A DNA stretch of 64,000 nt. It comes from a virus. Taxonomy: Duplodnaviria; Caudoviricetes. The notes beneath the pieces were generated by a model. The model saw only the letters and a list, made by a program, of their open reading frames with translations. It searched no databases and was not told the origin of the DNA. Made by a program: the position numbers and the translations under genes. Of this stretch, positions 1,768-30,069 are shown in pieces (the first letter of the stretch is position 1; every line of letters begins with the position of its first letter). The stretch covers positions 138,180-202,179 of IMG/VR virus record IMGVR_UViG_3300048591_000242. One strand, 5' to 3'.

Positions 1768-3681
1768 ATGGCTATTAAGAAAACAGGTGGAGAATCCGCA
1801 GAAGTGTCACAAGACAATGCTGGACCACAACAAGGATACACGTACCAACCACAATCTACAGGTGACGACCTGTTCTCTGGTATTGGTGTAGAGACTCTTT
1901 CTGGAGGCGTAGATACTGAAGGCTTCGCTGCGTTCAGTGCTGAGATGGAAAGACTATCTAAGTTACCTGAAGTACTCAGAACTATTAAGTTGAGTGTTAT
2001 TCCGGTATCAAACCAACACCTTAGACTGCCGGTATTGGCCATGGCGGCTGAGTCTAAAGACGGGGTTGTGGTTTACAGCCTTCTTATTGAAGGCATGATG
2101 GGTCAGCCTTTGGAGCCTATTCGTGAAATCCGTCGTGATTTCGGTGGCCCACAGGGAGCTGAGATTATTATTGATCGTCCTACTAGTCGTTGCTATGACA
2201 ACGGTTTGCGTAAGATCGTAGCGGCTGCGGTAGCTACGCAGTTAAATACCAGTGCTGAGCGTATCGTTCACCAGTCACATTGTGTTGTGCCACGTGGCGC
2301 TAACCTTAAGTGTGCTGAAACCTGTCGCTCGTTCTTTGACAGCGCTAACCTAGCTCTGACAAACGCTGTAGCGCGCGATCGTATTGCCGGTGTTACCGTA
2401 GCTAACCTTACCAACCCAGCGGGTGTGGTAAATCAGCGTACTACTATTACACCTGGACAAAACAAGTTGAACAAAATCGGTTTGCCTATTGCGGCTGACT
2501 TTACAACCACTATTGAACTTGCTCGTAAGGCGCAAGAAAAGACCAGTTGGTCATCAGATATTCACGTTGCACAACAGCGTTACCATTTGGCAGAAGTAAG
2601 CGGTTACATTGATTTCTCAGTAGCTGGCCCAATTCCACCAAAACCAAACATGAATCCAATGCTGCCACAAACTGTACCTGGTTACATTCCTATGGTTGTA
2701 ATTACAGAAATCGCTGGTTTGGCAAACAACGGTTCCTCTATTGAAGACATGCGCACGCAGTTACTGGGTATTGCTGCTACTACAGCGCTTACTGCAGATC
2801 ACGGCTGGGTACGTGTATTTGAAAAGATGGCCGGTGCCAAATCCGTCAAGGCAGATATCGGTTTATTAGGTTTGGAACACGATCCGTATATCGGTCGTAC
2901 ACCAGAACTAGGTATGGTTAGCGTAGACAGCATTAGCTACGGTAAGCAGCCAAAAGAAGGCACAATGACTCCGAAGCAAGTAGCGGATTTGTGGTGTACT
3001 GATAAAGTAGCAGTAGCGCTGGATGTTGAACAGGGTGGCCGTTTGCACTGGATTCAGGATATCTTTGTAGCGGCCTCTGGTGTAGGTGATGAAACTGGTC
3101 GCCGTACCGCAGCTAACGAACGTATCATTGCTGAGTGTGATGTTCTTACTAACGGTATTTTCTCACGTCTATGGACTGAGTTAAACGGTGGTCAGAAAGC
3201 ACACGTGGTAGCTACTGAAACTGTAGCAGTACATTTGGGTACGTATGATGGCGGTAAGAATGGCGGTCGCCGTGATCTTCGTTCTATCGACTATCTGACA
3301 ATGCTAGGTCAAATGCCGAAAGATCTGGAAAAGCTAAGTGCAGCTACTGCCGCTACCATTCCTGGTGGCTGTAATGCTATTACACTTACTGATCGCAGAA
3401 ACGCTATTGAAAACATTGTGGGCGATTGTGAATTCACCGGTATGGCTACACGCGTCTTCTTAACTGGTGGTTTCATCAATACTTTCGTACGTGCACTTAT
3501 CCAGGCAGGTGTTACTTTCCGTTCTGACGATTTGTTAGGTTACGGTCAGTCTAGCCAGCGTGTGGTAATGAACTACAACTTGGCCGGTACTGCTTCTGAA
3601 GGTTTATATCAGACAGCATATCAGCAGGGTTCAGTACCAGGCATCCCAGGCGGTGCTGGGTATATTAACCCATTGTTCTAG
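1768..3681 (+). CDS. chmA: Chimallin, phage nuclear shell protein (phiKZ gp54-like)
   Basis: 637 aa (chimallins are about 630 aa), low-complexity N-terminus, highly-expressed codon bias (CGT/GGT/CTG), early promoter, directly upstream of the nvRNAP beta' N subunit as in Chimalliviridae. Confidence 0.8.
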   Translation: MAIKKTGGESAEVSQDNAGPQQGYTYQPQSTGDDLFSGIGVETLSGGVDTEGFAAFSAEMERLSKLPEVLRTIKLSVIPVSNQHLRLPVLAMAAESKDGVVVYSLLIEGMMGQPLEPIREIRRDFGGPQGAEIIIDRPTSRCYDNGLRKIVAAAVATQLNTSAERIVHQSHCVVPRGANLKCAETCRSFFDSANLALTNAVARDRIAGVTVANLTNPAGVVNQRTTITPGQNKLNKIGLPIAADFTTTIELARKAQEKTSWSSDIHVAQQRYHLAEVSGYIDFSVAGPIPPKPNMNPMLPQTVPGYIPMVVITEIAGLANNGSSIEDMRTQLLGIAATTALTADHGWVRVFEKMAGAKSVKADIGLLGLEHDPYIGRTPELGMVSVDSISYGKQPKEGTMTPKQVADLWCTDKVAVALDVEQGGRLHWIQDIFVAASGVGDETGRRTAANERIIAECDVLTNGIFSRLWTELNGGQKAHVVATETVAVHLGTYDGGKNGGRRDLRSIDYLTMLGQMPKDLEKLSAATAATIPGGCNAITLTDRRNAIENIVGDCEFTGMATRVFLTGGFINTFVRALIQAGVTFRSDDLLGYGQSSQRVVMNYNLAGTASEGLYQTAYQQGSVPGIPGGAGYINPLF

Positions 3682-3755: not shown

Positions 3756-4982
3756 ATGAGTAAAAACATCCGCGTACTGGATCACGATGAACATTTTAGA
3801 AGTTTAAATTTTCCACCGATTATTCTAAACGATATACCGGCCAGAACTAAGGAGGAGAGAGAAGCACTAAATAACATCATAATGACCACGTACGACAACA
3901 CAGATACTTTAGAGTCAGTACCTAGCTGTGCGTGTGGGGCTCTGTCGTATGGGCATAACTTAGGGGCCATGTGTAGTAGCTGTGGTACCAGAGTAGAAAC
4001 CCCTACAGACAGAAAAATAGAGGCTACCGTATGGATACGTTCTCCAGAAGGTATAGTTTCTTTAGTAAACCCAGTATTGTGGTTGGTGTTAGGGAAGATC
4101 TTAACAAAATCACACTACAACGTTCTGTATTGGTTTTGTAACCCATATGCTGAAGATCCCCCACATAACAACAAGGCTGCTATTCAGTTAATACGCAGAT
4201 TTTTAAACTCTGGCATACCTCGAGGATTAAATTCCTTTATAGTGAACTTCGATCAGTTAGTACCTATCTTTCTGGCCGCAGTACCACTAGCTTCTAACCG
4301 ACCACATCTGGAATCTTTTATTTCAGAAAATAAAGACAAGTTCTTTCCACAGCACCTACCAGTACCGTCTAAGGTAGCGTTTGTTCTGGAGAAAACTAGT
4401 ACTGGCTCTTATGCCGATATTAACATAAGAGACCCTATTAACGCATGTCTTACTGTAACTTCACTGGACTCTGGTACCTTAAGTAACGTTAAGAGACTAG
4501 AAAGCAGAATGTCTTCTGTTATCAATGATTTATCGAACTATTACAAACATATGTTTGGTGATCCGTTCTCAGCTAAGGCCGGTCTTCTTAGAAAGACTGT
4601 ATTTGGCAGTAGGATGGGTTATAGTTTTCGATGCGTTATAACCAGTGCTCACGGGGTACACGACTATGAGCAAATAAAGATACCTTATTCTCAAGCGGTA
4701 ACTCTACTTAAGGCACACCTTCTAAACAAGCTACACAAGTTGGAGTATAACGAGAGAGATGCTAAGGCTTATATAGCCCAGCATACCAAGGAGAGAGATC
4801 CTCTGCTTCTTAGGCTCTTATATGAGCTTATAGCAGAAGCACCAGGGGGTAAAGGTATACGTTGTCTCTGGATTCGGTACCCTACTTTAACGAGGGGCAG
4901 TATACAGTCGCTTCATATCTCGGATATCTCCGAGATGTCAGCTAGTCTTAGTATATTGGCCCTAAACGGCGCTACGGCTGAT
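3756..4982 (+). CDS. Non-virion RNA polymerase beta' N-terminal subunit (phiKZ gp55-like), exon 1
   Basis: Zn-ribbon CACG...CSSC, KAGLLRKTVFGSRM and RYPTL beta' motifs; the track ORF (to 4994) stops just before the catalytic DxDGD; predicted exon end at ...ACG GCT GAT (TAD). Confidence 0.9.
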
Positions 4983-6494
4983 GAAGCGGCTTAACTAACG
5001 ATACTTGAACAATTGTGTTTGCTAATGTACATTAATGCTCTATGTGTTCTTTAAATTAAATAAATATCATGGTGAGGATAAATGTATGTTAGTTGAAATT
5101 AAAGGTTTTCCTGGGTTCTATAGGGCTGTTGGTACAACAAACCTGGCCGTAAATAAAAATGGAATCATTCTAGATTTAGTTACCCGTAAATACAAACTCA
5201 CCGACGTTGCATCGGATGGGTACATCACCACAAATGATGGCGGAGTAACTAGGAACGTTCATCGCATTATGGGTGATACATTCCTAAAACGTCCTAGCGG
5301 GAAGGGGACGTACATAATCAACCATAAGGACGGAGATAAAACTAATCCTAGGTTAGATAATTTAGAATGGGTTACATATAGCGGTAACATAGAACATGCC
5401 TACGCTAATGGTCTAAGAACAGACAACACTCCGGTTGAAGTTTATAACTTGAAAACGGATGAAATTATAAAATTTATTAGTATACAGCAGTGTGCTAAGT
5501 ATTTTAAACGTAACCATAACGCTATAGTTAAGTATCTTAAAAGCAAGCGTAATGCACCGTTTATGTTGTCGTACAGCATTAGAAAGGTAGGGGAAGGTTG
5601 GCCACCTCTTACCAAGAATGATATTGGTAAAGTGGTAAATGGGGCACCCGTTAGCATAATAGCGGTTAATGTAAGTACCGGTGAAAAAATAATTTTCAGT
5701 GGTGCTAAAGCGGCGTCAGAATATCTGGGTCTAAAGAAATCTGGAATAGGTGGTAACTTACGTGGCACACATGGCGATAAGCCGTACCACGGTTATAGAT
5801 TTTACCATCTTAACACCTATAATCTTGAGTCTACAGATAACGCAATTGATGTGCGTGATCCTCAATCAACTAAATCTAAAGGAAAACCACCTAGACAAAA
5901 GCCCAAAATGGTTAGTGCATTTAATCATGATACCGGTATTGAGGATGTGTTTAACTCCATGCGCGTATTTGCTGAGTCTGTAGGGACAACCTATGATGCA
6001 ATAGCTAGATCGGTATGGAAAAACGCTGGTAGGTGGAAAAACTACACAATCAAGTATATAGGTTAAGCCGATAGTCCTCTAGGCTAGTAATGGTCTAGTA
6101 GTTTCTCTCTAATTGCTGGAACCCACTAAAGATTCACCCACTACAACGTAACTGGAAACGGTAAGCGTGAAGGTATCGAAAGATAGAAAAAAGTGGTGAG
6201 TATGGAATATGACGATAGTAAGTCTAAGTTCTATAGACAATGTGGGAATCAGCAGCGAAGTTCCTAAGCTACTCTACCTTGGTAGAGGTGTATGGAATGT
6301 GCTCAACGATCAACCGGTAGCTCGGTGTAGGGTGGCAAGCGATGTAACAATCAGGCCATTCGAAATGGGAGGGGGCCTTTCATGTTTGTGTGAAAGGTTC
6401 ATGATATGATCTAATATCCATCTGTAATGGATGGGAAGTTCGCTACTTCGGTAGTGAGAACTGTATGGGTGTCGCGGCCCATATGAATGCAATG
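4983..6494 (+). mobile_element. Group I intron with HNH homing endonuclease in the P1 loop
   Basis: P (AATTGCTGGAA ~6111), Q (AATCAGCAGCG ~6247), R (GCTCAACGATCA 6301), S (ATGATATGATCT ~6402), P7 GATCA/TGATC, three P9 hairpins, terminal G at 6494, exon ends in U; CGGCTTAACT near the 5' end pairs with GGTTAAGCCG (6061-6070); splicing restores TADYDGD in frame. Confidence 0.88.
5086..6066 (+). CDS. Intron-encoded HNH homing endonuclease (I-HmuI-like, NUMOD1/IENR1 repeats)
   Basis: VHRIM...INHKDGDKTNPRLDNLEWVTYSGNIEHA HNH core plus three C-terminal repeats; GAGGA SD favours ATG 5086 over the track start 5035. Confidence 0.92.
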   Translation: MLVEIKGFPGFYRAVGTTNLAVNKNGIILDLVTRKYKLTDVASDGYITTNDGGVTRNVHRIMGDTFLKRPSGKGTYIINHKDGDKTNPRLDNLEWVTYSGNIEHAYANGLRTDNTPVEVYNLKTDEIIKFISIQQCAKYFKRNHNAIVKYLKSKRNAPFMLSYSIRKVGEGWPPLTKNDIGKVVNGAPVSIIAVNVSTGEKIIFSGAKAASEYLGLKKSGIGGNLRGTHGDKPYHGYRFYHLNTYNLESTDNAIDVRDPQSTKSKGKPPRQKPKMVSAFNHDTGIEDVFNSMRVFAESVGTTYDAIARSVWKNAGRWKNYTIKYIG

Positions 6495-7687: not shown

Positions 7688-7697
7688 TATATATTAC
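7688..7697 (+). promoter_or_regulatory. Early promoter
   Basis: AGA-TATATATTAC, CAACCAC 12 nt downstream. Confidence 0.72.
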
Positions 7698-11283: not shown

Positions 11284-12063
11284 ATGACTACATTTAAAGC
11301 TATACCCAAGAAAAACGTAACGGATGACCCTAAGTTAGCTCTGTTTGGGGAACCTTGGAGAGAAGGGGATTACAGTAAGAAACCTAGTATGAAGTTGAGA
11401 GTAATCAACTCTACGGGTAATCCAAAATCGGAAGTAAAACAAAGCACAGTCGGTGTTTGGATTACCGTATATTTAAATCATCCAGATGAAAATGATGATG
11501 CAAAGAAAATTGACATCAAAATGGATGCGGTCATATCGTCTACATTTATAGCTGCTATAGAGCGAGCTATAAAGAACCGAGAAGCCACTATGTTGGGTAT
11601 AGATAACATGGGGTATACCTTTGTAGGGGGCAACAAGTCAGATAAGCCCACTAGCCTGGGTAAGGTATTTGTGGGTAGAAACGGTGAGGGAGTATTGTGT
11701 CTGGTGGTAGATGCACCCAATAGACCAAGGGCTTTATTTCCGTTTACACCTACCTTTTGGTGGGCCCTTATTAATAAGAACGGGGATAAAATATCTGCCG
11801 TAGAGGCCTCTGAGTTGGTAGCAGAAGGCTGGGTAGCCATAGTGCGTCCTTTACTAGCTATGGCTGTAAAGGAAACCTACGACGACAAAGAAGCTGCACA
11901 CAGAAAAGCTGAATTGGAGGCAAATCGTAACTCACAAGGCAATAGCGGTGGTTACAGCAAGCCGTATGAGAAGAAGAGCTACGATGACAAAAAGAGCTAT
12001 GAAAAGAAACCGTATAACAACCCAAAGCCAACCACCACAGATGTCTTTGATAGCATTCATTAA
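11284..12063 (+). CDS. chmC: Probable nucleus-associated RNA-binding protein ChmC homologue
   Basis: 259 aa beta-rich domain plus disordered N/G/Y/K tail (EKKSYDDKKSYEKKPY); core-block position upstream of the sigma-like nvRNAP subunit; call rests on synteny. Confidence 0.5.
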   Translation: MTTFKAIPKKNVTDDPKLALFGEPWREGDYSKKPSMKLRVINSTGNPKSEVKQSTVGVWITVYLNHPDENDDAKKIDIKMDAVISSTFIAAIERAIKNREATMLGIDNMGYTFVGGNKSDKPTSLGKVFVGRNGEGVLCLVVDAPNRPRALFPFTPTFWWALINKNGDKISAVEASELVAEGWVAIVRPLLAMAVKETYDDKEAAHRKAELEANRNSQGNSGGYSKPYEKKSYDDKKSYEKKPYNNPKPTTTDVFDSIH

Positions 12064-12071
12064 TTAACTAT

Positions 12072-12103
12072 TTTAGGTAAAGGGCTTAGGCTCTTTACCT
12101 AAA
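12072..12103 (+). terminator. Terminator hairpin followed by TATGCC
   Basis: TTTAGGTAAAGGGC-TTAG-GCTCTTTACCTAAA, TATG at 12105. Confidence 0.75.
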
Positions 12104-12124
12104 GTATGCCTGGAGTACTGTAAA

Positions 12125-12673
12125 ATGAATAGTGAAAAAACAGTTAACATGCACACGGATATAGATGTGGCTAGATACTTATTAGCTACAGAAAACGCCA
12201 AACATATGTTTCTGGCATTAAGGGAAGCCATGTCGCCCTATGGCCAAGTAGATATGACCGTACATTGTGGCATATATACCAACAATGACAATCTGCTAGC
12301 AGCCATGTACAACTTATGTATACCTCTGGATTGCGTAAGAAACAATGAGGGCATAGGCAGTATAGTGTTGACGGTAGATAATAGGATATGCCCTACCTAC
12401 AGATACGATCGTGAGAACAGAGTACTGGTGTTCGATATGGCCCATAACGGAAAACATGTTAAGGTACAAATACCGCCTATTCTAATTATGGGTATGTGCG
12501 TGCGGGATTATCCTAGCACTAGAGTTAGTGTATCTAACTATGGGATAAATGAGTTTATCTCTGTAGCCGGAGATATGGCTATTACTAAATGCCCTGAGAC
12601 CATATACAAAAGAACGTTAATAAAGGGACAGAAGAATTTACCAGATAACGTGGTTTCTATATTCAACAAATAA
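12125..12673 (+). CDS. sspB: SspB-like ClpX adaptor, paralogue 1
   Basis: IPLDCVRNNEGIGSIVLTV...LVFDMAHNGKHVKVQIPPILIMGMCVRD aligns with the SspB core (VPMEYARDGQIVLNI...VRFNARFGGIPRQVSVPLAAVLAIYARE); tail DNVVSIFNK. Confidence 0.7.
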   Translation: MNSEKTVNMHTDIDVARYLLATENAKHMFLALREAMSPYGQVDMTVHCGIYTNNDNLLAAMYNLCIPLDCVRNNEGIGSIVLTVDNRICPTYRYDRENRVLVFDMAHNGKHVKVQIPPILIMGMCVRDYPSTRVSVSNYGINEFISVAGDMAITKCPETIYKRTLIKGQKNLPDNVVSIFNK

Positions 12674-12685
12674 TGAGGTTTTACT

Positions 12686-13243
12686 GTGACTGATAATCTA
12701 CCTTACCTTGAGTGTAACACTGAGCGATACCTAGCCAGCACTATAGCGGCTAAAGATTTATTTATGCATATGCGAAGCATTATGTCCAAGTATGGTACAG
12801 TACATGCCGCTATAAACTGTGGTACCTTTGTGAGTCCAACTGAGTTTATACCGGCGATGACCAATCTTAAAGTACCACAACCATACATAGAAAATCGAAA
12901 TGGTGCCGGTGTCATGATTTTGTCTGTATCAGAAGGCTCGTGCATTCATTACGACTATGATCTGTCTAAACGAGTTTTTGTTTTTAATTTGAGTTTCGGA
13001 GGTGTAGCCACTGTAGTACATATACCGCCTATTTTAATAGTGGGTCTGTATGTTAAAGACCACCCAGCTACTGTATCTACCATATCTACATACTCACGAG
13101 ATGAGTTTATTGGGGTAGCCAACGGTATGGCAGTTGGTATATGTCCAGATGAGGTCTATAGAAATTTGTTTCTACCGGTACATGAACCTGTAGGTAATGT
13201 AGTTAGTATATTCGATAAAAGCAAGGGTAAGCCGTCTAAGTAG
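12686..13243 (+). CDS. sspB: SspB-like ClpX adaptor, paralogue 2
   Basis: VPQPYIENRNGAGVMILSV...FVFNLSFGGVATVVHIPPILIVGLYVKD matches the SspB core including FGG; tail GNVVSIFDK. Confidence 0.78.
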   Translation: MTDNLPYLECNTERYLASTIAAKDLFMHMRSIMSKYGTVHAAINCGTFVSPTEFIPAMTNLKVPQPYIENRNGAGVMILSVSEGSCIHYDYDLSKRVFVFNLSFGGVATVVHIPPILIVGLYVKDHPATVSTISTYSRDEFIGVANGMAVGICPDEVYRNLFLPVHEPVGNVVSIFDKSKGKPSK

Positions 13244-13294: not shown

Positions 13295-13304
13295 TATATA
13301 TTAC
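13295..13304 (+). promoter_or_regulatory. Early promoter
   Basis: AGG-TATATATTAC, CAACCAC 12 nt downstream. Confidence 0.75.
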
Positions 13305-13337
13305 CTACATGTAAACCAACCACGCTAGGATGTTATC

Positions 13338-14774
13338 ATGGAAATAAAAATGAGTGAAATTGAAAAGAATATTCTTTTCGTCACCCACAGAGGGGAGAGT
13401 ATTCGGTGCCCTACCTCCGGATACTTTAAGAAACTATCAACCACAGGCAATAGCTTTGACCCATTAAACGAATACTGGGCCACACTTAGCACGCTGCATC
13501 AAGACGCCATATATGCGCTATACGCTGAAGCCAATATGGTTATCGAGGAAACCAATAGTTTTGACAGAACTAAAGCCGATTTGACTGATATCGTAGCTAG
13601 ACTGTTTGATTTAATAGACTACGGTCATCTAACTGATTGGGTACTTAGATATGGTAAGATTTCTTACAACAAAGATATCGCTACGTCCTATAGTGGTGTC
13701 TATGAAGAAAGATTAACTTATCTAAAAGACGACTATGATGGTCTGGTTGTGCTATCCATGTTCTTTAAGATGCTTACACCTATATGGGGTTTATTCTCTG
13801 ATACTTCACCTAATTTGGATATGGGGTTTAAGGAGATAAATGCATTAGAGATGATGGATACGTCTAAGGTACATTCATTACCGGCCATGGCCAGATTAAA
13901 GGACTATTGTGAGGCATTGGTAAATAAAAACAAGAAGGGGATGACTCCTGCTATACTGGGTAGACATATTGGTACCAGTGAGGTACCTAAGTACTTTTTG
14001 GCGTTAGCCGTCGTGCGCAGGTTAGCGATAGGTGACATTAGAGACAACAAAGACACGTTGATAAAACTGGTTTATAAGTTTCTAAAGTCAAATATAGAAA
14101 ACCTTAGCAAGGGTGTCAGGGATAAGCGTGGGTACAGTAGTGACCCAGATGACCCAGAGTCAGTAGCAGAAAGATATCGTATTTCTCAGAGGGTACCAGA
14201 TAACGATATTACTACTGCCGAGTCTTATGTAAAAGACATAGCTAGGTTTGTAACCGATGTATCGCCTACGGGTAATGTAGATAAAGCTATCGCTTATGTA
14301 AACGCTATTAAAAATAGCGCTAGCTTTAGCATAGCTGGATTTCACATACAGTTCATGGGACTAGTTTGTGATAGGGTTATAAGTCCTAGGACATGCAGAT
14401 TAATGTCAAGAAATAGTTATTTAACTGTTTTGGGAGTTACCGCTGGTTGGTTATCTGATAACGGGTATCAACTACTGGCCAACATTATAATGTCGCCTAG
14501 ATATGAAAGAGACCCTGAAGCCATGCAAATGCATTCGGTATCTGGTTTTGCTTTTACTGGATTAATTAAGGAAAACCGTGAAGCCTTGGATGCTATTTAT
14601 AGCCACCAACAGCTAGACTTACAGGGTAAATCTAAGGGTAACCCTGGAGTAATGATGATTGATATGATCGTGGAAGAAATAAATTCTTACGATTGGGATG
14701 AAACGTTAGTCGTACCACAGAACATAAGGAACGACATAGCTGCACTGTTATTATACCGGGAGAACGCGCTGTGA
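13338..14774 (+). CDS. Non-virion RNA polymerase sigma-like specificity subunit (phiKZ gp68-like)
   Basis: 478 aa, helical, VAERYRISQ-type motif, early promoter, core synteny. Confidence 0.7.
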   Translation: MEIKMSEIEKNILFVTHRGESIRCPTSGYFKKLSTTGNSFDPLNEYWATLSTLHQDAIYALYAEANMVIEETNSFDRTKADLTDIVARLFDLIDYGHLTDWVLRYGKISYNKDIATSYSGVYEERLTYLKDDYDGLVVLSMFFKMLTPIWGLFSDTSPNLDMGFKEINALEMMDTSKVHSLPAMARLKDYCEALVNKNKKGMTPAILGRHIGTSEVPKYFLALAVVRRLAIGDIRDNKDTLIKLVYKFLKSNIENLSKGVRDKRGYSSDPDDPESVAERYRISQRVPDNDITTAESYVKDIARFVTDVSPTGNVDKAIAYVNAIKNSASFSIAGFHIQFMGLVCDRVISPRTCRLMSRNSYLTVLGVTAGWLSDNGYQLLANIIMSPRYERDPEAMQMHSVSGFAFTGLIKENREALDAIYSHQQLDLQGKSKGNPGVMMIDMIVEEINSYDWDETLVVPQNIRNDIAALLLYRENAL

Positions 14775-16267
14775 GCTTAACAAATACCATAGAGTTAGTA
14801 AAGGCCTCATTCATAGGTGTACCCTGTGAGGCAAACATGCACTATCGCCCATACAAGGCGACATTAGATACCGCTACATTAAATGAGGTAGCAGAAACTA
14901 CCAGAGGTGGCACTAATATAGGGTCCAATGCATTTAGCGGTGTAGCTGGCAGAATCTTAGCGCCATCGAGTCAGTCTATGGGGGGTCTAATGATTCCATA
15001 CGGCTGGGATCAGCGACGCTACAGTGTTGTACTGGAGTTTGATGTGATAACGCCATTTGCCGTCGAGCGCTCTATTATAACTGGATATACCGGTTATGAT
15101 GAGATCACTGCAACTGGCCATTTAGATCCAAATATGCCCATATTTGTAAACAGTCACACCATAGCTACCGCTACTGCATTTAAGGATCAAATGGGTATTC
15201 GTCGTAACGCCTATAGAAGTAATGGGGCCAAGCAAGTACTTAGTGGTGTACAGTACATTAACAATACTGACGGTAGTGTTAATACGGCTAGTACACCAAT
15301 GCGTCCCTCAGATGCTTTGTTATACAAACAAAGACAAGAGATGTGTCTGCTAAATAACGTTGTAGACGCTCGCTCTATGTTGGGAGATGGATATTTGTCA
15401 TCTAACCGAGATAACGTTATTGGCAGTAAGTATTTATCTAAGGTCTGTATGGGCTATAGACAGGCGGCCTTATCCAATAGCGAGTATGCTGATACCGATG
15501 CGGTTATTTATGGAGATGCTGCTGAGGTATACGGTGTAGCTGAAAGCAACATAAACAAATCTTTGTTATTCCAAAGACTGAAGGCTCTTACTAGTTACGG
15601 ACATAACAACTCCATAACTGTAGGTGAATTGGCTAGCGTATGGCCACAGATTCATGACGATACCACTAAAACGGTTATTCACATGACTCCTGGGCTACCA
15701 GAGACTACAGCTAACTGTAACAACCACTGGGGTGGTGCTATAAAGGAAACTGCATTGGCATATATGCTTTGTCAATCAGTACCTGCATTGATGAGTACTT
15801 TACTATTTAGTGAGTTCTCTTTTGCTATGGATAACAAAACTATGGACGGCAGCGTACGTATAGCTCTATTAGGCATGCCTAAGTTCATTGTACCGATTCC
15901 AGATGACTTACATCGAATCCAGGCTATGGAGAGTAATCTAGTATCTGACGTAGCCGCACAAATTACTTCTAGTGGTGTAACTGATTTTGATGTAGTTATG
16001 ACCTGTAGGATAATCGGTAGCAATCAAGTTACCATTTCTGTCAACGGAGGGGAAAGAATACCCTATAGCGCTCCGGCTTACTGTGATGCCATATACACAC
16101 CTGTAATGGGTGAGAGCGCCGATTCATTAGTTAATTTAGGTAATGACATCGGTTATATGCTACATGGTATATTTGGAGACAGCCACAATAGGTCCAATAT
16201 ACAGCAGCCTGCGGTAGCGTGGGATGACATTAACGATACACCCGACATATACCTAGGGGGAATGTAG
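14771..16267 (+). CDS. picA: Probable nuclear import factor PicA/Imp1 (phiKZ gp69-like)
   Basis: 498 aa, GTGA-coupled directly after the gp68-like gene as in Chimalliviridae; call mainly by synteny and size. Confidence 0.62.
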   Translation: MSLTNTIELVKASFIGVPCEANMHYRPYKATLDTATLNEVAETTRGGTNIGSNAFSGVAGRILAPSSQSMGGLMIPYGWDQRRYSVVLEFDVITPFAVERSIITGYTGYDEITATGHLDPNMPIFVNSHTIATATAFKDQMGIRRNAYRSNGAKQVLSGVQYINNTDGSVNTASTPMRPSDALLYKQRQEMCLLNNVVDARSMLGDGYLSSNRDNVIGSKYLSKVCMGYRQAALSNSEYADTDAVIYGDAAEVYGVAESNINKSLLFQRLKALTSYGHNNSITVGELASVWPQIHDDTTKTVIHMTPGLPETTANCNNHWGGAIKETALAYMLCQSVPALMSTLLFSEFSFAMDNKTMDGSVRIALLGMPKFIVPIPDDLHRIQAMESNLVSDVAAQITSSGVTDFDVVMTCRIIGSNQVTISVNGGERIPYSAPAYCDAIYTPVMGESADSLVNLGNDIGYMLHGIFGDSHNRSNIQQPAVAWDDINDTPDIYLGGM

Positions 16268-18142: not shown

Positions 18143-20236
18143 ATGTTCATGGGCAAACGTACCCTAACACTAGAAGAAAGAAAGGTACCCCTAACCAGAA
18201 GAACACATGGCACCATAGCGACTTTATCTAGTACCACTACGTTCGATAGTGCCTCCAGGGTACAAATGGCTAGTGTACAGGCAGGTCAAGCCCTAGTGCC
18301 ACACAAGTCAGATATACCAAGAATGTTACCTGGATTTGAAGATCAGTTAGCCAAATACACTTTTGGCGTAAAAGCACCAGATGATCTTAAGATTGTCTCA
18401 GTAATAAGTAAGTATAGCGGGGGCTTAGGCGCACATGCCATAAAGTCAAACCCCCTCATAACGGTAATTTATGTAAGTCTGAATACTGGGGAATATGGTT
18501 GCTTCCATATAGAGCAATATCAAAACCAGAGTGAGCGAGTACATGAGACTTTTGGCTTCAAATACAAACTTACTCCTAAAGCCAAGAATTTACACGTTAA
18601 CATGTGTTTAGAGAAAGGTGAAGTACTGTCTATCTCTCCCAATGTAGATGAACATGGATGGTACGCCACTGGTATATCAGCTAACGTAGCATACATGTCT
18701 ACTCCAGCTACTACGGAAGACGGATTTGAGATAAGTGATAGTCTATTGGAGAGAGCTAAGCCTACAGCTACTGGTTCTCGTGTAGCAGAATGGGGTAAGA
18801 AGTGTTATCCACTAAACATTTACAATGAGGGCGATGACAAGTATCGCCCTTTCCCAGAGATAGGAGACCCGATTCGTGAGGATGGTCTGGTGTACGCCAT
18901 GCGTGACTATGATGACGTTTTAGCTGGCTTAGACATGACCAACAAGTCTCTTTGTAAGGTGGACTTTGTACACGACGAGTGTGTCTACGGTAAACCAGGG
19001 GCTAAGGTATTTGATATAACTATCTATACTACTACCAATGAAGGTAGACGTAGCCATAACACTCCATCTGGCATGGAAAAGCTTTGTGAGAAATACTCAA
19101 AGCAGCACAGTCAGTATTATGAAAAGATACTGGAGTGCTATGCTAGCATTAAGCGAGTAACTAATGGGGATTTTAAAATAACCCCAGAATTACAAAACTT
19201 AATAGTAAGGGCTAACGGGGACATGCCTAACGTAGTGGTACGTAGACTGGAGGACAAGATACGTAAGAAAAATAGTATTATTAAAACTTGGCGAGCTAAC
19301 CCTATAGATGAGTGGCGAGTAGAGGTGTTCTATGAGTATTTATTCCCTATAGGGGAAGGGGCTAAGTTTAGTAATCGCCATGGAAGTAAGGGGGTTATTT
19401 GTCGAGTCACAAAATCTGAAGATATGCCTGTAGATGCCTTCGGTAACAGAGTAGATATAATTATCTATTCTAAAGGTTCTATCTCCAGACTAAACCCCGG
19501 GCAGTTTTATGAGCACTTCATAAACGCGTGTTCTAGAGACGTCACTCTGGACATAAAGGCCATGATAGGTACTGGTGATAGAAAGGGAGCACTGAAGCAT
19601 CTGTTGGAGTATTTACGCATTGCATCGCCTAGGTCATACGAGTTAATTGACTTTGATAATCAGGAGGAACTGGATGACTTATTGGATAGAGCGTGTAAGT
19701 ATGGTATTTATGTATTCGCGCCCTCTGACGATAAGGATTTAGGCATAGCTACGTTCTTTAAGCTAATGGAGTTTCGACCACCAAATAAATCACAAGTAAC
19801 ATATCGTGATGTATCTGGTAGGTTAGTTACTACAGTAGAACCTATTTTGGTAGGGGAAGAGGACGTTATTGTACTAGATAAGCTAGATCATAAACCGATG
19901 GCTGTATCTGGTATAAGAAGACAACATCATGGTTTCCCTGCTGTAGAGAATAAGAGTACTAAACATAGTACTCCTAGTAAGGAGCAGCCACCTAAGATTA
20001 TCGGTGAGTCTGAGGCTAGGACTGCGGCTGCCGTAATGGGTGGGGATGCAGTATCTGAGTTGTTGGATGTTACTACTAATCCAGAAACACACAGACGTAC
20101 AGCGGCTGCTATATTCGAAGCAGAAAATCCAATGGACATAGCGGATTTGGTTGATAGAGAGAATCCTTCTACTGGTGGTAGAAGTATACAATTTATTAAG
20201 CATGTGCTTAGCTGTGCTGGCTATACGATAAAATAA
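18143..20236 (+). CDS. Non-virion RNA polymerase beta C-terminal subunit (phiKZ gp71-73-like), uninterrupted
   Basis: GAKFSNRHGSKGVI, SRLNPGQFYE and KIIGESE rpoB motifs. Confidence 0.92.
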   Translation: MFMGKRTLTLEERKVPLTRRTHGTIATLSSTTTFDSASRVQMASVQAGQALVPHKSDIPRMLPGFEDQLAKYTFGVKAPDDLKIVSVISKYSGGLGAHAIKSNPLITVIYVSLNTGEYGCFHIEQYQNQSERVHETFGFKYKLTPKAKNLHVNMCLEKGEVLSISPNVDEHGWYATGISANVAYMSTPATTEDGFEISDSLLERAKPTATGSRVAEWGKKCYPLNIYNEGDDKYRPFPEIGDPIREDGLVYAMRDYDDVLAGLDMTNKSLCKVDFVHDECVYGKPGAKVFDITIYTTTNEGRRSHNTPSGMEKLCEKYSKQHSQYYEKILECYASIKRVTNGDFKITPELQNLIVRANGDMPNVVVRRLEDKIRKKNSIIKTWRANPIDEWRVEVFYEYLFPIGEGAKFSNRHGSKGVICRVTKSEDMPVDAFGNRVDIIIYSKGSISRLNPGQFYEHFINACSRDVTLDIKAMIGTGDRKGALKHLLEYLRIASPRSYELIDFDNQEELDDLLDRACKYGIYVFAPSDDKDLGIATFFKLMEFRPPNKSQVTYRDVSGRLVTTVEPILVGEEDVIVLDKLDHKPMAVSGIRRQHHGFPAVENKSTKHSTPSKEQPPKIIGESEARTAAAVMGGDAVSELLDVTTNPETHRRTAAAIFEAENPMDIADLVDRENPSTGGRSIQFIKHVLSCAGYTIK

Positions 20237-20331: not shown

Positions 20332-22305
20332 ATGTCAATACCTAAATATAAGGCAAATGACATAGCCTTAATGTCTGAGGATGAGGTATGGGGTTTACCT
20401 AGGCAGATAGAAATTTTATTTGCAGATAAGGTAAAGTTAGTTACTACATGTAGAAGAACTATTATCAGTTGGTACATGTGGAGACTACATAGGGACTTTC
20501 CTGGGTGTCCTGTATTGAGTACGCATCACATAGGTAACAAGCGATTTGTGAAGCGTAGTGAGCTTAAAAGACTATCGGTTATTTTCTGGGACGTATATGA
20601 GGGTCATCTGGAAAAGCATGAAAATACCGTATGGGAGATGAGTAAAGCTACCTATGAAATAATAAATACCATTCACAACATAACGGTATCTAGACTGAGT
20701 CCTTATGTAACTACTACGGACTTAGCTGATATAGCTGAGATTATGACTCACCCAGTAATAGCTGGAGCTAAACGCAAGGCACAAGAGCGAATAGATGCTA
20801 ATGAGGATGGTTCGGTAGTACTGGCTGAAACCTTTAATGAAATCTTTTCTACGTTGGATGGAGATGACCCTAGCTTACGTAGAAATGGCATAGCCAAAAT
20901 GGTTCGTTGTGGATTGTTAAATAGAAACCAGATTTTACAATTCATAGGGCCTAGGGGATTTGTTAAGTCTACTGACGGTACTATGTATAGTGAGCCTATC
21001 TATGCAGGGTATGCGGATGGGTTAAAGAATCTGTATGACTCTATGACTGAGTCTAGAACTGCATCTTTAGCACTGTATATGAACGAAGGTCCTTTACAGG
21101 ACTCTGAGTACTTTAACAGACAGATGCAGCTTTTAGCAGCAGTTATCTCTGGGGTAGGTCAAGATGACTGTGGTACTCAGCATACCTTGGAGTGGTATGT
21201 AAATGAGAACGACCTAGAAGGGTTAGAGGGCAAGTACCATATAGTAGATGGCAAACCTGTTTTATTCAGTAAGCGGGACAGCCATTATGTAGGTAAGATT
21301 ATTAATCTTAGATCTATTACTAGATGTGCTAATCCAGACCCTACTGTAGTCTGTAAAACCTGTCTAGGATTAGTGCACAGGGTAATACCGCCTAGGACTA
21401 ACGTAGGGCACTTTCTTACAATTGAACCTCTAGCTACCTTGAGTCAGCTTATACTGTCTACAAAGCACGTAGTAGCCAGCGTAGCCTCATTGTATCTAGA
21501 TTTGTCTGGTTTACCGGGTAAATGGTTTAGATATGACTCTCAGAATAAATCCGCTATACGTGTAAAGAAAGCTAATATAGCTAACTCTTACTGTATTCGG
21601 TTTTTAGCTAGTGAGGCTTCTGGTTTAAACAGTATAGCTTCCTGTAGCGATGTATCGTCTTTACCGCCGCAGCGCATAAGTTGTATTACTGGCATACAGA
21701 TAGCTAACGCTGATGTAGACGGTAGTCCTAAGGGAGAATGGGATTCATTTGATACTGTGGTAGGTGGCGTGGGTAGTGCCTTGTCTGGGGATGTGATAGA
21801 AGCCATACAGCGTAATGGCTTTAAAGTAGTAGGGGAGATGATTGAGGTTTTGTTGGATGATTTTAGGGATAAGGTAATTATTATTACTCCTAGAAGAAAC
21901 GAAGATATGATGACTTATCTTAAACAGGTAAAGCATTTTGTATTCGGAGCTGAAAACAAAAACGACAAAGGGGACTCTCTAGTTAGCTATACTAACCCGG
22001 CTTTAGCTGTAGCTTCTTTGAAAAGAATATTTGATGAGAAGATTACAGTTAACGTTATACATGCTGAGATCTTAGTGAGGGCATGTATGACAAGGATAAA
22101 TCCGAATGACAGGTATGGTAACACTGACTACAATTTGCCGGTAGGGGGAGAGGCCTTTAGATTTACTAATGCTAAAGCTATAATTCATAATAGAAGTATA
22201 TCTGCGGCACTAGCATTTCAGGGACAGAAGAACTTACTTACCAATCCACAAACGTTTCTGGTACGAGACAGGCATCCACACCCACTGGATGCCTTTATTT
22301 ATTAA
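20332..22305 (+). CDS. Non-virion RNA polymerase beta' C-terminal subunit (phiKZ gp74-like)
   Basis: QILQFIGPRG, DDCGT, RSITRC...VCKTCLG Zn site, LSQLILSTKH (trigger-loop region). Confidence 0.92.
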   Translation: MSIPKYKANDIALMSEDEVWGLPRQIEILFADKVKLVTTCRRTIISWYMWRLHRDFPGCPVLSTHHIGNKRFVKRSELKRLSVIFWDVYEGHLEKHENTVWEMSKATYEIINTIHNITVSRLSPYVTTTDLADIAEIMTHPVIAGAKRKAQERIDANEDGSVVLAETFNEIFSTLDGDDPSLRRNGIAKMVRCGLLNRNQILQFIGPRGFVKSTDGTMYSEPIYAGYADGLKNLYDSMTESRTASLALYMNEGPLQDSEYFNRQMQLLAAVISGVGQDDCGTQHTLEWYVNENDLEGLEGKYHIVDGKPVLFSKRDSHYVGKIINLRSITRCANPDPTVVCKTCLGLVHRVIPPRTNVGHFLTIEPLATLSQLILSTKHVVASVASLYLDLSGLPGKWFRYDSQNKSAIRVKKANIANSYCIRFLASEASGLNSIASCSDVSSLPPQRISCITGIQIANADVDGSPKGEWDSFDTVVGGVGSALSGDVIEAIQRNGFKVVGEMIEVLLDDFRDKVIIITPRRNEDMMTYLKQVKHFVFGAENKNDKGDSLVSYTNPALAVASLKRIFDEKITVNVIHAEILVRACMTRINPNDRYGNTDYNLPVGGEAFRFTNAKAIIHNRSISAALAFQGQKNLLTNPQTFLVRDRHPHPLDAFIY

Positions 22306-29083: not shown

Positions 29084-29572
29084 ATGAAATATATTCCGAT
29101 TTTTGATGATACTACGGTAGGTTCTGTATTTGCTGAGCTTTTGGCCTGTCAGAGTGAAGGGGAGACTGAGGCTACTTTAATCTTCAGTGCCCCTGATATG
29201 GGTATGTATATAGGTTTGGCCTTTAGAGACCTTTTATATACCTTTAAGGACACTCTTGCGCTTACGGCGGTAGCCCACATACCCCCTAACCTAAATGAGC
29301 TTGTAGCGATTACAGGGTTGCCTGTAGAGCAGAGAAAGATTACTAAGTCAAATCTAGTAATCTTTGTAAAAGAAACCTGGTTTATCGAAGGCTCTGTTTC
29401 TGAGCAGTACATTACTCATTCAGAAAAGCTTTTAGTAGAAAATAAAATTGTAAAACTAATAAGCGAGTCTTCTAAGCTTACCGAAGAAAACATAAACAAC
29501 CTAATTAAAGACGGTAAGGTTGTTCATGCTAAGGATGCTATAGAGGCAGGGTTATTTGGGAGTACTGTATAA
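29084..29572 (+). CDS. Catalytically inactive ClpP paralogue (ClpR-like)
   Basis: DDTTVGSVFAELLACQSE...GLAFRDLL...HAKDAIEAGLFGSTV follows the ClpP fold end to end, with no Ser at the nucleophile elbow (AHIPPN) and no His (VIFVKE). Confidence 0.72.
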   Translation: MKYIPIFDDTTVGSVFAELLACQSEGETEATLIFSAPDMGMYIGLAFRDLLYTFKDTLALTAVAHIPPNLNELVAITGLPVEQRKITKSNLVIFVKETWFIEGSVSEQYITHSEKLLVENKIVKLISESSKLTEENINNLIKDGKVVHAKDAIEAGLFGSTV

Positions 29573-30069
29573 TGGCTACTAAAAGAATACTTTACATTAC
29601 CGATGACATAGCTTTAGAAAACGGCTATGAGGTAATTATAGGTTTGCGTAAGCTAGAGGCAGAAGACCCTATCTCCCCTATAGTTTTGTTTATAAATTCA
29701 TACGGTGGCAGAGTAGACGTATGTCTGGCTATAGTAGACGTTATGAACGATCTGTCGTGTCCTGTATATACCGTGGGATACGGTCAGGTTATGTCAGCAG
29801 GTGCCTTTATTTTAGCAAACGGCTCTAAAGGTAATAGAAGCTTAGCCCCTAATGCCAGAGTACTACTACATCACCCTAACGGCAATAACGTACTGGGAGA
29901 TACAGACACCGGCATGGCTGTATTCTTAGCCTATCGTGATATGGTAGATGTATTAATAGCAGAAGCTTCTGAAAGAAGTATAGAAGAGGTATCTTCTAAG
30001 ATGTCTACTGACTATTATTTATCTGCTACAGAAGCTGTAGAATTTGGTATAGTAGATACTGTTTTATAG
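29572..30069 (+). CDS. clpP: ClpP serine protease
   Basis: LFINSYGG, QVMSAGA (Ser), LLHHP (His), STDYYLSATEAVEFGIVD (Asp); TAATG coupling to the upstream paralogue. Confidence 0.92.
   Translation: MATKRILYITDDIALENGYEVIIGLRKLEAEDPISPIVLFINSYGGRVDVCLAIVDVMNDLSCPVYTVGYGQVMSAGAFILANGSKGNRSLAPNARVLLHHPNGNNVLGDTDTGMAVFLAYRDMVDVLIAEASERSIEEVSSKMSTDYYLSATEAVEFGIVDTVL

Follow-up and report, generated by a model that had tools for sequence, protein, structure and literature searches.

The last 64,000 nucleotides of the IMG/VR virus record IMGVR_UViG_3300048591_000242 (positions 138,180 to 202,179, referred to here as the window) carry two tandem genes whose products are predicted to belong to the SspB adaptor superfamily. 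The record is 202,179 bp long, bears direct terminal repeats, and derives from an uncultured chimallivirus, which is a nucleus-forming jumbo phage. The pair would represent fast-evolving accessory genes of this phage that arose through duplication within its own lineage. The NVVS[IL] peptide near the C-terminus of both proteins is most likely a ClpX-binding (XB) tail that would dock on the N-terminal zinc-binding domain of host ClpX, and the proteins might thereby tether selected cargo to host ClpXP, leading to its degradation. We infer docking, cargo delivery, and a site of action in the cytoplasm from the features described below. The idea that the proteins dock on host ClpX by means of this peptide and deliver cargo held by a diverged core is, in our judgement, somewhat better than an even bet. 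The genes and their tail motifs are located as follows.

12125-12673, + strand: SspB-like gene 1, encoding 182 amino acids, with an ATG start and GGAG 9 nt upstream
12647-12670, + strand: tail motif NVVSIFNK, at the extreme C-terminus of protein 1
12686-13243, + strand: SspB-like gene 2, encoding 185 amino acids, with a GTG start and a GAGG ribosome-binding site 7 nt upstream
13196-13219, + strand: tail motif NVVSIFDK of protein 2, followed by SKGKPSK

An earlier note on this DNA had described the genes as tandem paralogues with a common NVVSIF[N/D]K at their C-termini. Both statements are borne out, in that the proteins share 38% identity over 173 residues (E = 1e-43) and the motif occurs in each, with seven further residues after it in protein 2. 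Protein 1 consists of a long N-terminal helix, an SspB-type beta core (approximately residues 40-135), a conserved hydrophobic linker of 37 amino acids, and the terminal NVVSIFNK. Protein 2 has the same architecture and retains the FGG motif. The public gene call for gene 2 (P0001) begins at an internal methionine and gives a protein of only 128 amino acids. We favour the GTG start because of the homology with gene 1 over residues 7-57 and the presence of the GAGG ribosome-binding site. When 1.84 billion representatives of approximately 15 billion proteins were searched exhaustively with a profile, one further member of the family emerged, the 188-residue protein P0003 (E = 4.5e-11). Two other proteins returned by this search, P0004 and P0005, were rejected on inspection as spurious repeat proteins.

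Predicted structure provides much stronger evidence for a relationship to SspB than sequence does. Template-free AlphaFold2 models were generated from alignments that hold the family only (2 and 3 sequences). The mean predicted local distance difference test (pLDDT) value is 58 for protein 2 and 67 for protein 1 (70-86 in the core), with predicted template modelling scores of 0.63 and 0.64, respectively. The N-terminal helix is predicted at residues 6-39 of protein 1 and residues 12-36 of protein 2. A Foldseek search placed SspB at the top for both paralogues, occupying the first 13 chains for protein 2 and the first 18 for protein 1 (E = 1e-4 to 4e-4). VIA-align, which is independent of Foldseek, was run with protein 1 against the full set of 48,161 representative chains and yielded Z scores of 10.2, 10.1, 6.9, and 6.5 for SspB from E. 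coli, H. influenzae, A. tumefaciens, and C. crescentus, respectively. The superposition on E. coli SspB includes 104 of 105 residues at a root-mean-square deviation of 2.8 Å. A fold search was the check that the earlier note had named for its SspB-like assignment, and its outcome agrees with that assignment. As far as prediction allows, the SspB substrate-binding-domain fold can be regarded as established, and common ancestry with SspB is likely.

The sequence-only case for membership in the SspB family is weak. PHROG 8945 ('SspB-like') matches protein 2 at E = 0.0018 and protein 1 at E = 0.0071, and a phmmer search of the PDB sequences lists E. coli SspB at E = 1.5. The Pfam SspB model (PF04386), whose gathering threshold is 27 bits, aligns with 33 residues of protein 2, on the FGG..P..A strand, at 13.9 bits (E = 0.057) and has no hit in protein 1. 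When all six frames of the phage record were searched with this model, the same single sub-threshold match was returned. The Pfam, PHROG, and phmmer matches coincide on one stretch, which is the F-G-G ... IP...I..LY strand pair. Protein 2 also matches gp39 of Erwinia phage RAY (pairwise BLASTP E = 8e-5), a protein that passes the Pfam SspB threshold with 29.3 bits on re-scan. When the three-member family was compared by hhalign with the RAY group, whose four phage SspB proteins are all assigned to Pfam SspB by the precomputed annotation of the database, the alignment extended over 79 columns (Prob 84%, E = 7.5e-6). The corresponding comparison with 50 bacterial SspB proteins covered only 33 columns (P = 0.008, Prob 5-14%).

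An alternative explanation is that the proteins are not relatives of SspB at all, but exhibit a generic small beta-barrel likeness or an artefact of low-confidence models. The Pfam score below the cut-off and the pLDDT values of 58-67 are in keeping with this, and Sm/SH3-like barrels are common, with unrelated barrels appearing lower in the VIA-align list at Z scores of 3-3.6. However, all four PDB SspB clusters come first in that list, with a best Z score of 10.2 versus 3.6 for the best unrelated chain and nearly complete alignment of the SspB chain. In addition, both paralogues independently give SspB, and Pfam, PHROGs, PDB phmmer, BLASTP to RAY gp39, and hhalign agree on the family and on the strand. 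We consider this alternative to be very improbable.

The best structural match is to the E. coli and H. influenzae type of SspB (PF04386; 1OU8, 1OU9, 1OX9, and 8ET3). The SspB core pattern named in the earlier note is present, such that VPQPY...FGG...HIPPILIVGLYVKD of protein 2 aligns with VPMEY...FGG...VPLAAVLAIYARE of E. coli SspB. The two also have in common the strand motif F-G-G ... [VI]P...[VI]..[IL]Y and the order of core, linker, and C-terminal peptide. They differ in that E. coli SspB is only 12-16% identical to the window proteins, ends in ALRVVK rather than NVVSIF, and has a long, acidic, disordered linker. E. coli SspB binds ssrA and RseA. Given the low identity of the cores, the cargo of the phage proteins is probably not that of bacterial SspB. 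Alphaproteobacterial SspB (C. crescentus 2QAS/2QAZ and A. tumefaciens 2NYS) shares the fold and a VVS[LI] tail core with the window proteins. Nevertheless, these bacterial proteins are only 6-12% identical to them, and the window models (Z about 10 with the E. coli/H. influenzae type) are more distant from the alpha type.

In the three members of the family, which are otherwise 24% identical, N-V-V-S followed by I or L is invariant, and only IPPIL is better conserved. Among the 644 other open reading frames (ORFs) of at least 60 codons in the genome, only three have VV[ST][LIV] within 20 residues of the C-terminus. This rarity makes it unlikely that the resemblance to the alpha-type tail is due purely to chance, although the comparison was made after the fact. 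We abandoned the hypothesis that SIF imitates the IGF loop of ClpX to dock on ClpP, since this tripeptide is missing from the tail of P0003.

To check the comparison with alphaproteobacterial tails made in the earlier note, SspB proteins were extracted from 70 genomes sampled across Pseudomonadota. Two classes of tail are apparent. Class 1 conforms to [LF]-x-[VLI]-[VI]-K, as in ALRVVK of E. coli, whereas class 2 conforms to [VI]VSL[DE]xFRKK, with variants such as SNVVTVDFGKKK. A. tumefaciens AGR_C_3712 (PDB 2NYS), the chain of which terminates in VVSLDAFRKK, has a near-copy among the class 2 proteins (E = 2e-64), and this near-copy is also related to Caulobacter SspB (E = 3e-32). The Agrobacterium type is the nearer one for all 27 class 2 proteins, as is the E. 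coli type for 41 of the 43 class 1 proteins. The VVSLD-type tail that the earlier note attributed to alphaproteobacterial SspB is therefore real, since each of the 27 sampled proteins of the Agrobacterium/Caulobacter type ends in [VI]VSL[DE].FRKK or a close variant. The tails of the phage family have the VVS[LI] core in common with this alpha type, and the P0003 tail NVVSLTDMRRIK aligns without gaps to xVVSLDAFRKK.

Equal support from the structural evidence and the conservation of the tail is available for a decoy or blocker function. In this case, the tail would occupy the ClpX N-domain, or the core would sequester degrons, and adaptor-dependent and N-domain-dependent degradation would be inhibited. 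The proteins might, for example, protect phage proteins or ssrA-tagged products rather than deliver new cargo. Two paralogues with near-identical tails and diverged cores would raise the dosage of tails, and competitive inhibition was proposed, on the basis of modelling only, by the authors who described the SspB homologue of phage pf16 in 2017 (PMC5587285). However, a role for the tail alone would not need the core, which has been kept in all three members along with its invariant IPPIL. We regard a blocker as possible but unlikely.

The pair resides within the conserved nucleus/nvRNAP block of the chimallivirus genome. The surrounding genes are listed below.

1768-3681: nuclear-shell (chimallin) gene
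3756-4994, 18143-20236, and 20332-22305: split multisubunit RNA-polymerase genes
11284-12063: homologue of phiKZ gp67 (ChmC), E = 3e-11
13338-14774: homologue of phiKZ gp68
14771-16267: homologue of phiKZ gp69 (PicA), E = 2e-39

The gene order around the SspB-like pair matches that of gp65 to gp70 in phiKZ, in which gp67 corresponds to ChmC (bioRxiv 10.1101/2023.09.22.559000) and gp69 to PicA (PMC11087766). An insertion into the nucleus core block had been claimed in the earlier note, and the comparison with related phages supports this claim. Specifically, the pair is situated between the gp67 and gp68 homologues, and in seven of eight related contigs (gp68-like proteins 36-72% identical), including the nearest relative, the chmC-like and gp68-like genes are adjacent with no such gene at the site. 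There is also no gene of this kind between gp67 and gp68 in phiKZ. Its absence at the syntenic site in seven contigs and in phiKZ indicates that the genes are accessory and are not part of the chimallivirus core.

P0003 is encoded at exactly this site, flanked by a chmC-like and a gp68-like gene, but as a single copy on a metagenomic contig of 23 kb. The chmC-like and gp68-like proteins encoded on this contig are 38% and 55% identical to those of the window, and P0003 is 24% identical to each of the two window paralogues. Because this value is lower than the identity of the paralogues to each other, the duplication must have occurred in the lineage of the window. The SspB-like genes also evolve much faster than their neighbours. 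No additional relatives emerged from a word-index search of 5.8 billion proteins, which found nothing beyond the window's own record, from tblastn of the window proteins against 50,697 phage records, or from pattern scans of IMG/VR with the family alignment. Likewise, the gp68-like neighbour, when used to scan IMG/VR and JGI metagenomes, retrieved nothing other than the window. To judge from these sequence comparisons, the three proteins constitute an orphan subfamily of extreme divergence.

SspB-like genes as such are not new to phages, and the novelty suggested by the earlier note was overstated. Used as a tblastn query, E. coli SspB hits 78 phage records, among them phiKZ gp232 and numerous jumbo phages of Pseudomonas, Erwinia, Ralstonia, and Xanthomonas. 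Such genes are frequent accessory genes of chimalliviruses and other phages, and they are widespread among the nucleus-forming jumbo phages. A fold search of BFVD adds 201phi2-1, PhiPA3, Psa21, Phabio, Noxifer, and Aeromonas phage phiA8-29, among others. A pair of SspB-fold proteins seems to be present in two of these phages, namely phiA8-29 (A0A1W6DXU6 and A0A1W6DY71) and 201phi2-1 (B3FJK8 and B3FJL0, the second being weak at E = 0.22). Duplication of SspB adaptors may be a recurrent event among jumbo phages. Published annotations as SspB exist for the genes of phages pf16 and RAY. RAY gp039, which is SspB-like, is cytoplasmic in infected cells (PMC10299810) and provides a precedent for action in that compartment. 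The literature that we searched contained no functional test of any phage SspB-like protein.

Like the window proteins, RAY gp039, phiKZ gp232, pf16 gp18, and PHROG 8945 are products of accessory genes and combine an SspB-type core with a short conserved C-terminal peptide, and those of chimalliviruses share with the window an occurrence in nucleus-forming jumbo phages. Of the five other phage SspB homologues examined, four terminate in a class 1 tail, as does the SspB of their beta- and gammaproteobacterial hosts. These are phiKZ gp232 (KLTVIKGGKK), RAY gp39 (PTLTVVK), pf16 gp18 (PTLRVVK), and Ralstonia phage FLC4-3B gp94 (FLSVVK). Such host-type tails support the possibility that the tails of phage SspB homologues are functional. 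The protein of Xanthomonas phage LucasX (196) instead has the ending ..MADFRARRKPSS, reminiscent of the latter half of an alpha-type tail. The phiKZ gp232 protein carries an extension of approximately 200 residues between its core and its tail.

Several differences set the window proteins apart from these relatives. The known phage genes are found by tblastn with E. coli SspB, and those of the RAY group carry Pfam SspB, whereas the window proteins are not found in this way. With the exception of LucasX, the known phage proteins end in L[RTS][VI][VI]K, compared to NVVS[IL] in the window family. Furthermore, the window pair is arranged in tandem between chmC and gp68, whereas RAY gp39 and phiKZ gp232 are encoded elsewhere in their genomes. 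What is distinctive here is therefore the extreme divergence, the tandem duplication, the chmC-gp68 site, the alpha-type tail core, and a linker that is hydrophobic rather than acidic.

A number of observations weigh against the proposal that the proteins dock on host ClpX and deliver cargo. The modest confidence of the models, with two to three sequences beneath them, the sub-threshold Pfam match, and the short hhalign alignment with bacterial SspB are among these. In addition, the tails of the window proteins are without the D.FRKK half and have only VVS[LI] in common with the alpha type. A position-weight matrix of the alpha-type tail, built from 23 bacterial sequences, did not place the window tails among the 15 best of 96,079 positions in the phage ORFs, and we consequently claim no more than a VVS[LI] core in common. 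The stretch that connects the core to the tail is also unusual. It is 34-37 amino acids long, is 35-42% hydrophobic or aromatic, includes conserved Tyr and Cys residues, and is modelled with low confidence, whereas the linkers of the sampled bacterial SspB proteins have a median length of 55 amino acids and are 15% hydrophobic. A segment this short and hydrophobic is not a typical flexible SspB linker, and instead of serving as a tether it may form a small extension with a structure of its own.

Two further points on the same side concern the host and expression. The alpha-type tail core suggests a host lineage with alpha-type SspB. However, the phage also encodes a YbaK-HDOD protein of 458 amino acids (63902-65278 of the phage record, outside the window), and this gene is probably host-derived. 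Full-length relatives with 34-38% identity are present in eight of 151 sampled Pseudomonadota genomes, and in all eight the SspB tail is of class 1 (PSLKVVK). Because the YbaK-HDOD relatives occur only beside class 1 tails, the alpha-type tail might not match the host's own SspB, and we did not adopt a host assignment from the tail. A search for sequencing runs that contain the region, and for expression data, found none. When the C-terminal 46 residues of protein 2 were modelled in complex with two Caulobacter ClpX N-domains (residues 1-62), the prediction, run without controls, scored 0.17 against a mark of 0.34, and it weighs neither way.

The atypical linker, which is both hydrophobic and conserved, is also compatible with an SspB fold that has been re-used independently of ClpX. 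The core would then be a peptide-binding module, and the tail together with a structured linker would bind another partner, for which the phage ClpP-like pair, ChmC, gp68, and PicA are candidates. The location of the genes inside the chmC-gp68-picA block, the partial fit of the tail to the bacterial XB consensus, and the presence of the following two genes would all be consistent with this explanation.

29084-29572: degenerate ClpP-like gene (E = 0.0023), directly preceding the ClpP gene
29572-30069: ClpP gene (Pfam CLP_protease, E = 3.3e-39)

On the other hand, host-type XB tails are retained by the phage SspB proteins that are closest by profile, and the absence of the gene from the site in seven of eight related contigs means that it is not core machinery. 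We assign a ClpX-independent function a low probability, similar to that of a blocker.

For docking on host ClpX with delivery of cargo, the identity of the unfoldase is constrained by the content of the phage genome. Neither a ClpX zinc domain nor an AAA_2 module of the ClpX/ClpA type was found in the phage record, and any unfoldase must therefore be supplied by the host. The pair of ClpP and ClpP-like genes might itself encode either a head-maturation protease or an auxiliary one. It is conceivable, though rather doubtful, that the two adaptors, phage ClpP, and its degenerate ClpP-like partner operate with the host ClpX motor as a hybrid protease. If so, the phage would provide substrate selection (possibly as a heterodimer with two cargo sites) as well as the peptidase chamber, with the host contributing only the motor, and host defence or regulatory proteins might be selectively destroyed outside the phage nucleus.

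If phage SspB-like proteins redirect or jam host ClpXP, they would constitute a general device for takeover or counter-defence in the cytoplasm, which is where phage proteins are made and where host defences operate. By itself, the locus opens no new kind of biology, and the earlier note had correctly recognized a type of gene already known from phages. The family does reach far below the detection limit of Pfam, which implies that surveys based on annotation undercount phage SspB proteins. The conserved tail falls into recognizable classes and could serve as a clue to host lineage. Moreover, recently duplicated tandem copies with diverged cores and near-identical tails offer a natural test case for the division of SspB into a core for cargo and a tail for docking.

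The earlier note had also proposed that the two genes form their own unit, delimited by a hairpin with TATGCC and the next early promoter. The relevant elements are as follows.

12069-12106, + strand: strong RNA hairpin between the ChmC-like gene and gene 1, with 17 pairs, -23 kcal/mol, and z = -5.3
12105-12110: TATGCC, overlapping the last two stem bases of this hairpin
13297-13323, + strand: TATATTAC-N12-CAACCAC element ahead of the gp68-like gene

The upstream part of this proposal is sustained by the hairpin, which none of 200 shuffled sequences equalled in stability, although no T-run follows the stem. The TATGCC sequence is present there, but it is enriched throughout the window (60 copies versus 34 expected) and thus is not specific to the site at 12105. 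On the downstream side, the hairpin located 3' of gene 2 is weak (-10.1 kcal/mol, z = -1.2), leaving this boundary less clear than had been implied. The TATATTAC-N12-CAACCAC element belongs to the gp68-like gene and marks the downstream edge of the insertion. It also occurs at 7690, 18103, and 20287, before the gp59-like gene and two RNA-polymerase genes, and we presume it to be a promoter by its likeness to the phiKZ early-promoter consensus. Additional copies of TATATTAC are located at 1287, 25270, 30139, and 32767, where the first box alone was examined. A scan for sigma-70 promoters and intrinsic terminators around both genes gave nothing above the shuffled expectation.

The source phage is distant from all cultured phages. 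Its gp68-like protein shares no more than 27% identity with that of any GenBank phage, and a megablast search of phage sequences with the region returned no match. The G+C content is even across the region at about 0.39-0.42, and thus the SspB-like genes are not compositionally foreign. No transfer-messenger RNA was found by ARAGORN within the window. An ORF for an HNH endonuclease (5035-6066; PHROG 59, E = 6e-27) directly follows the RNA-polymerase subunit gene at 3756-4994.

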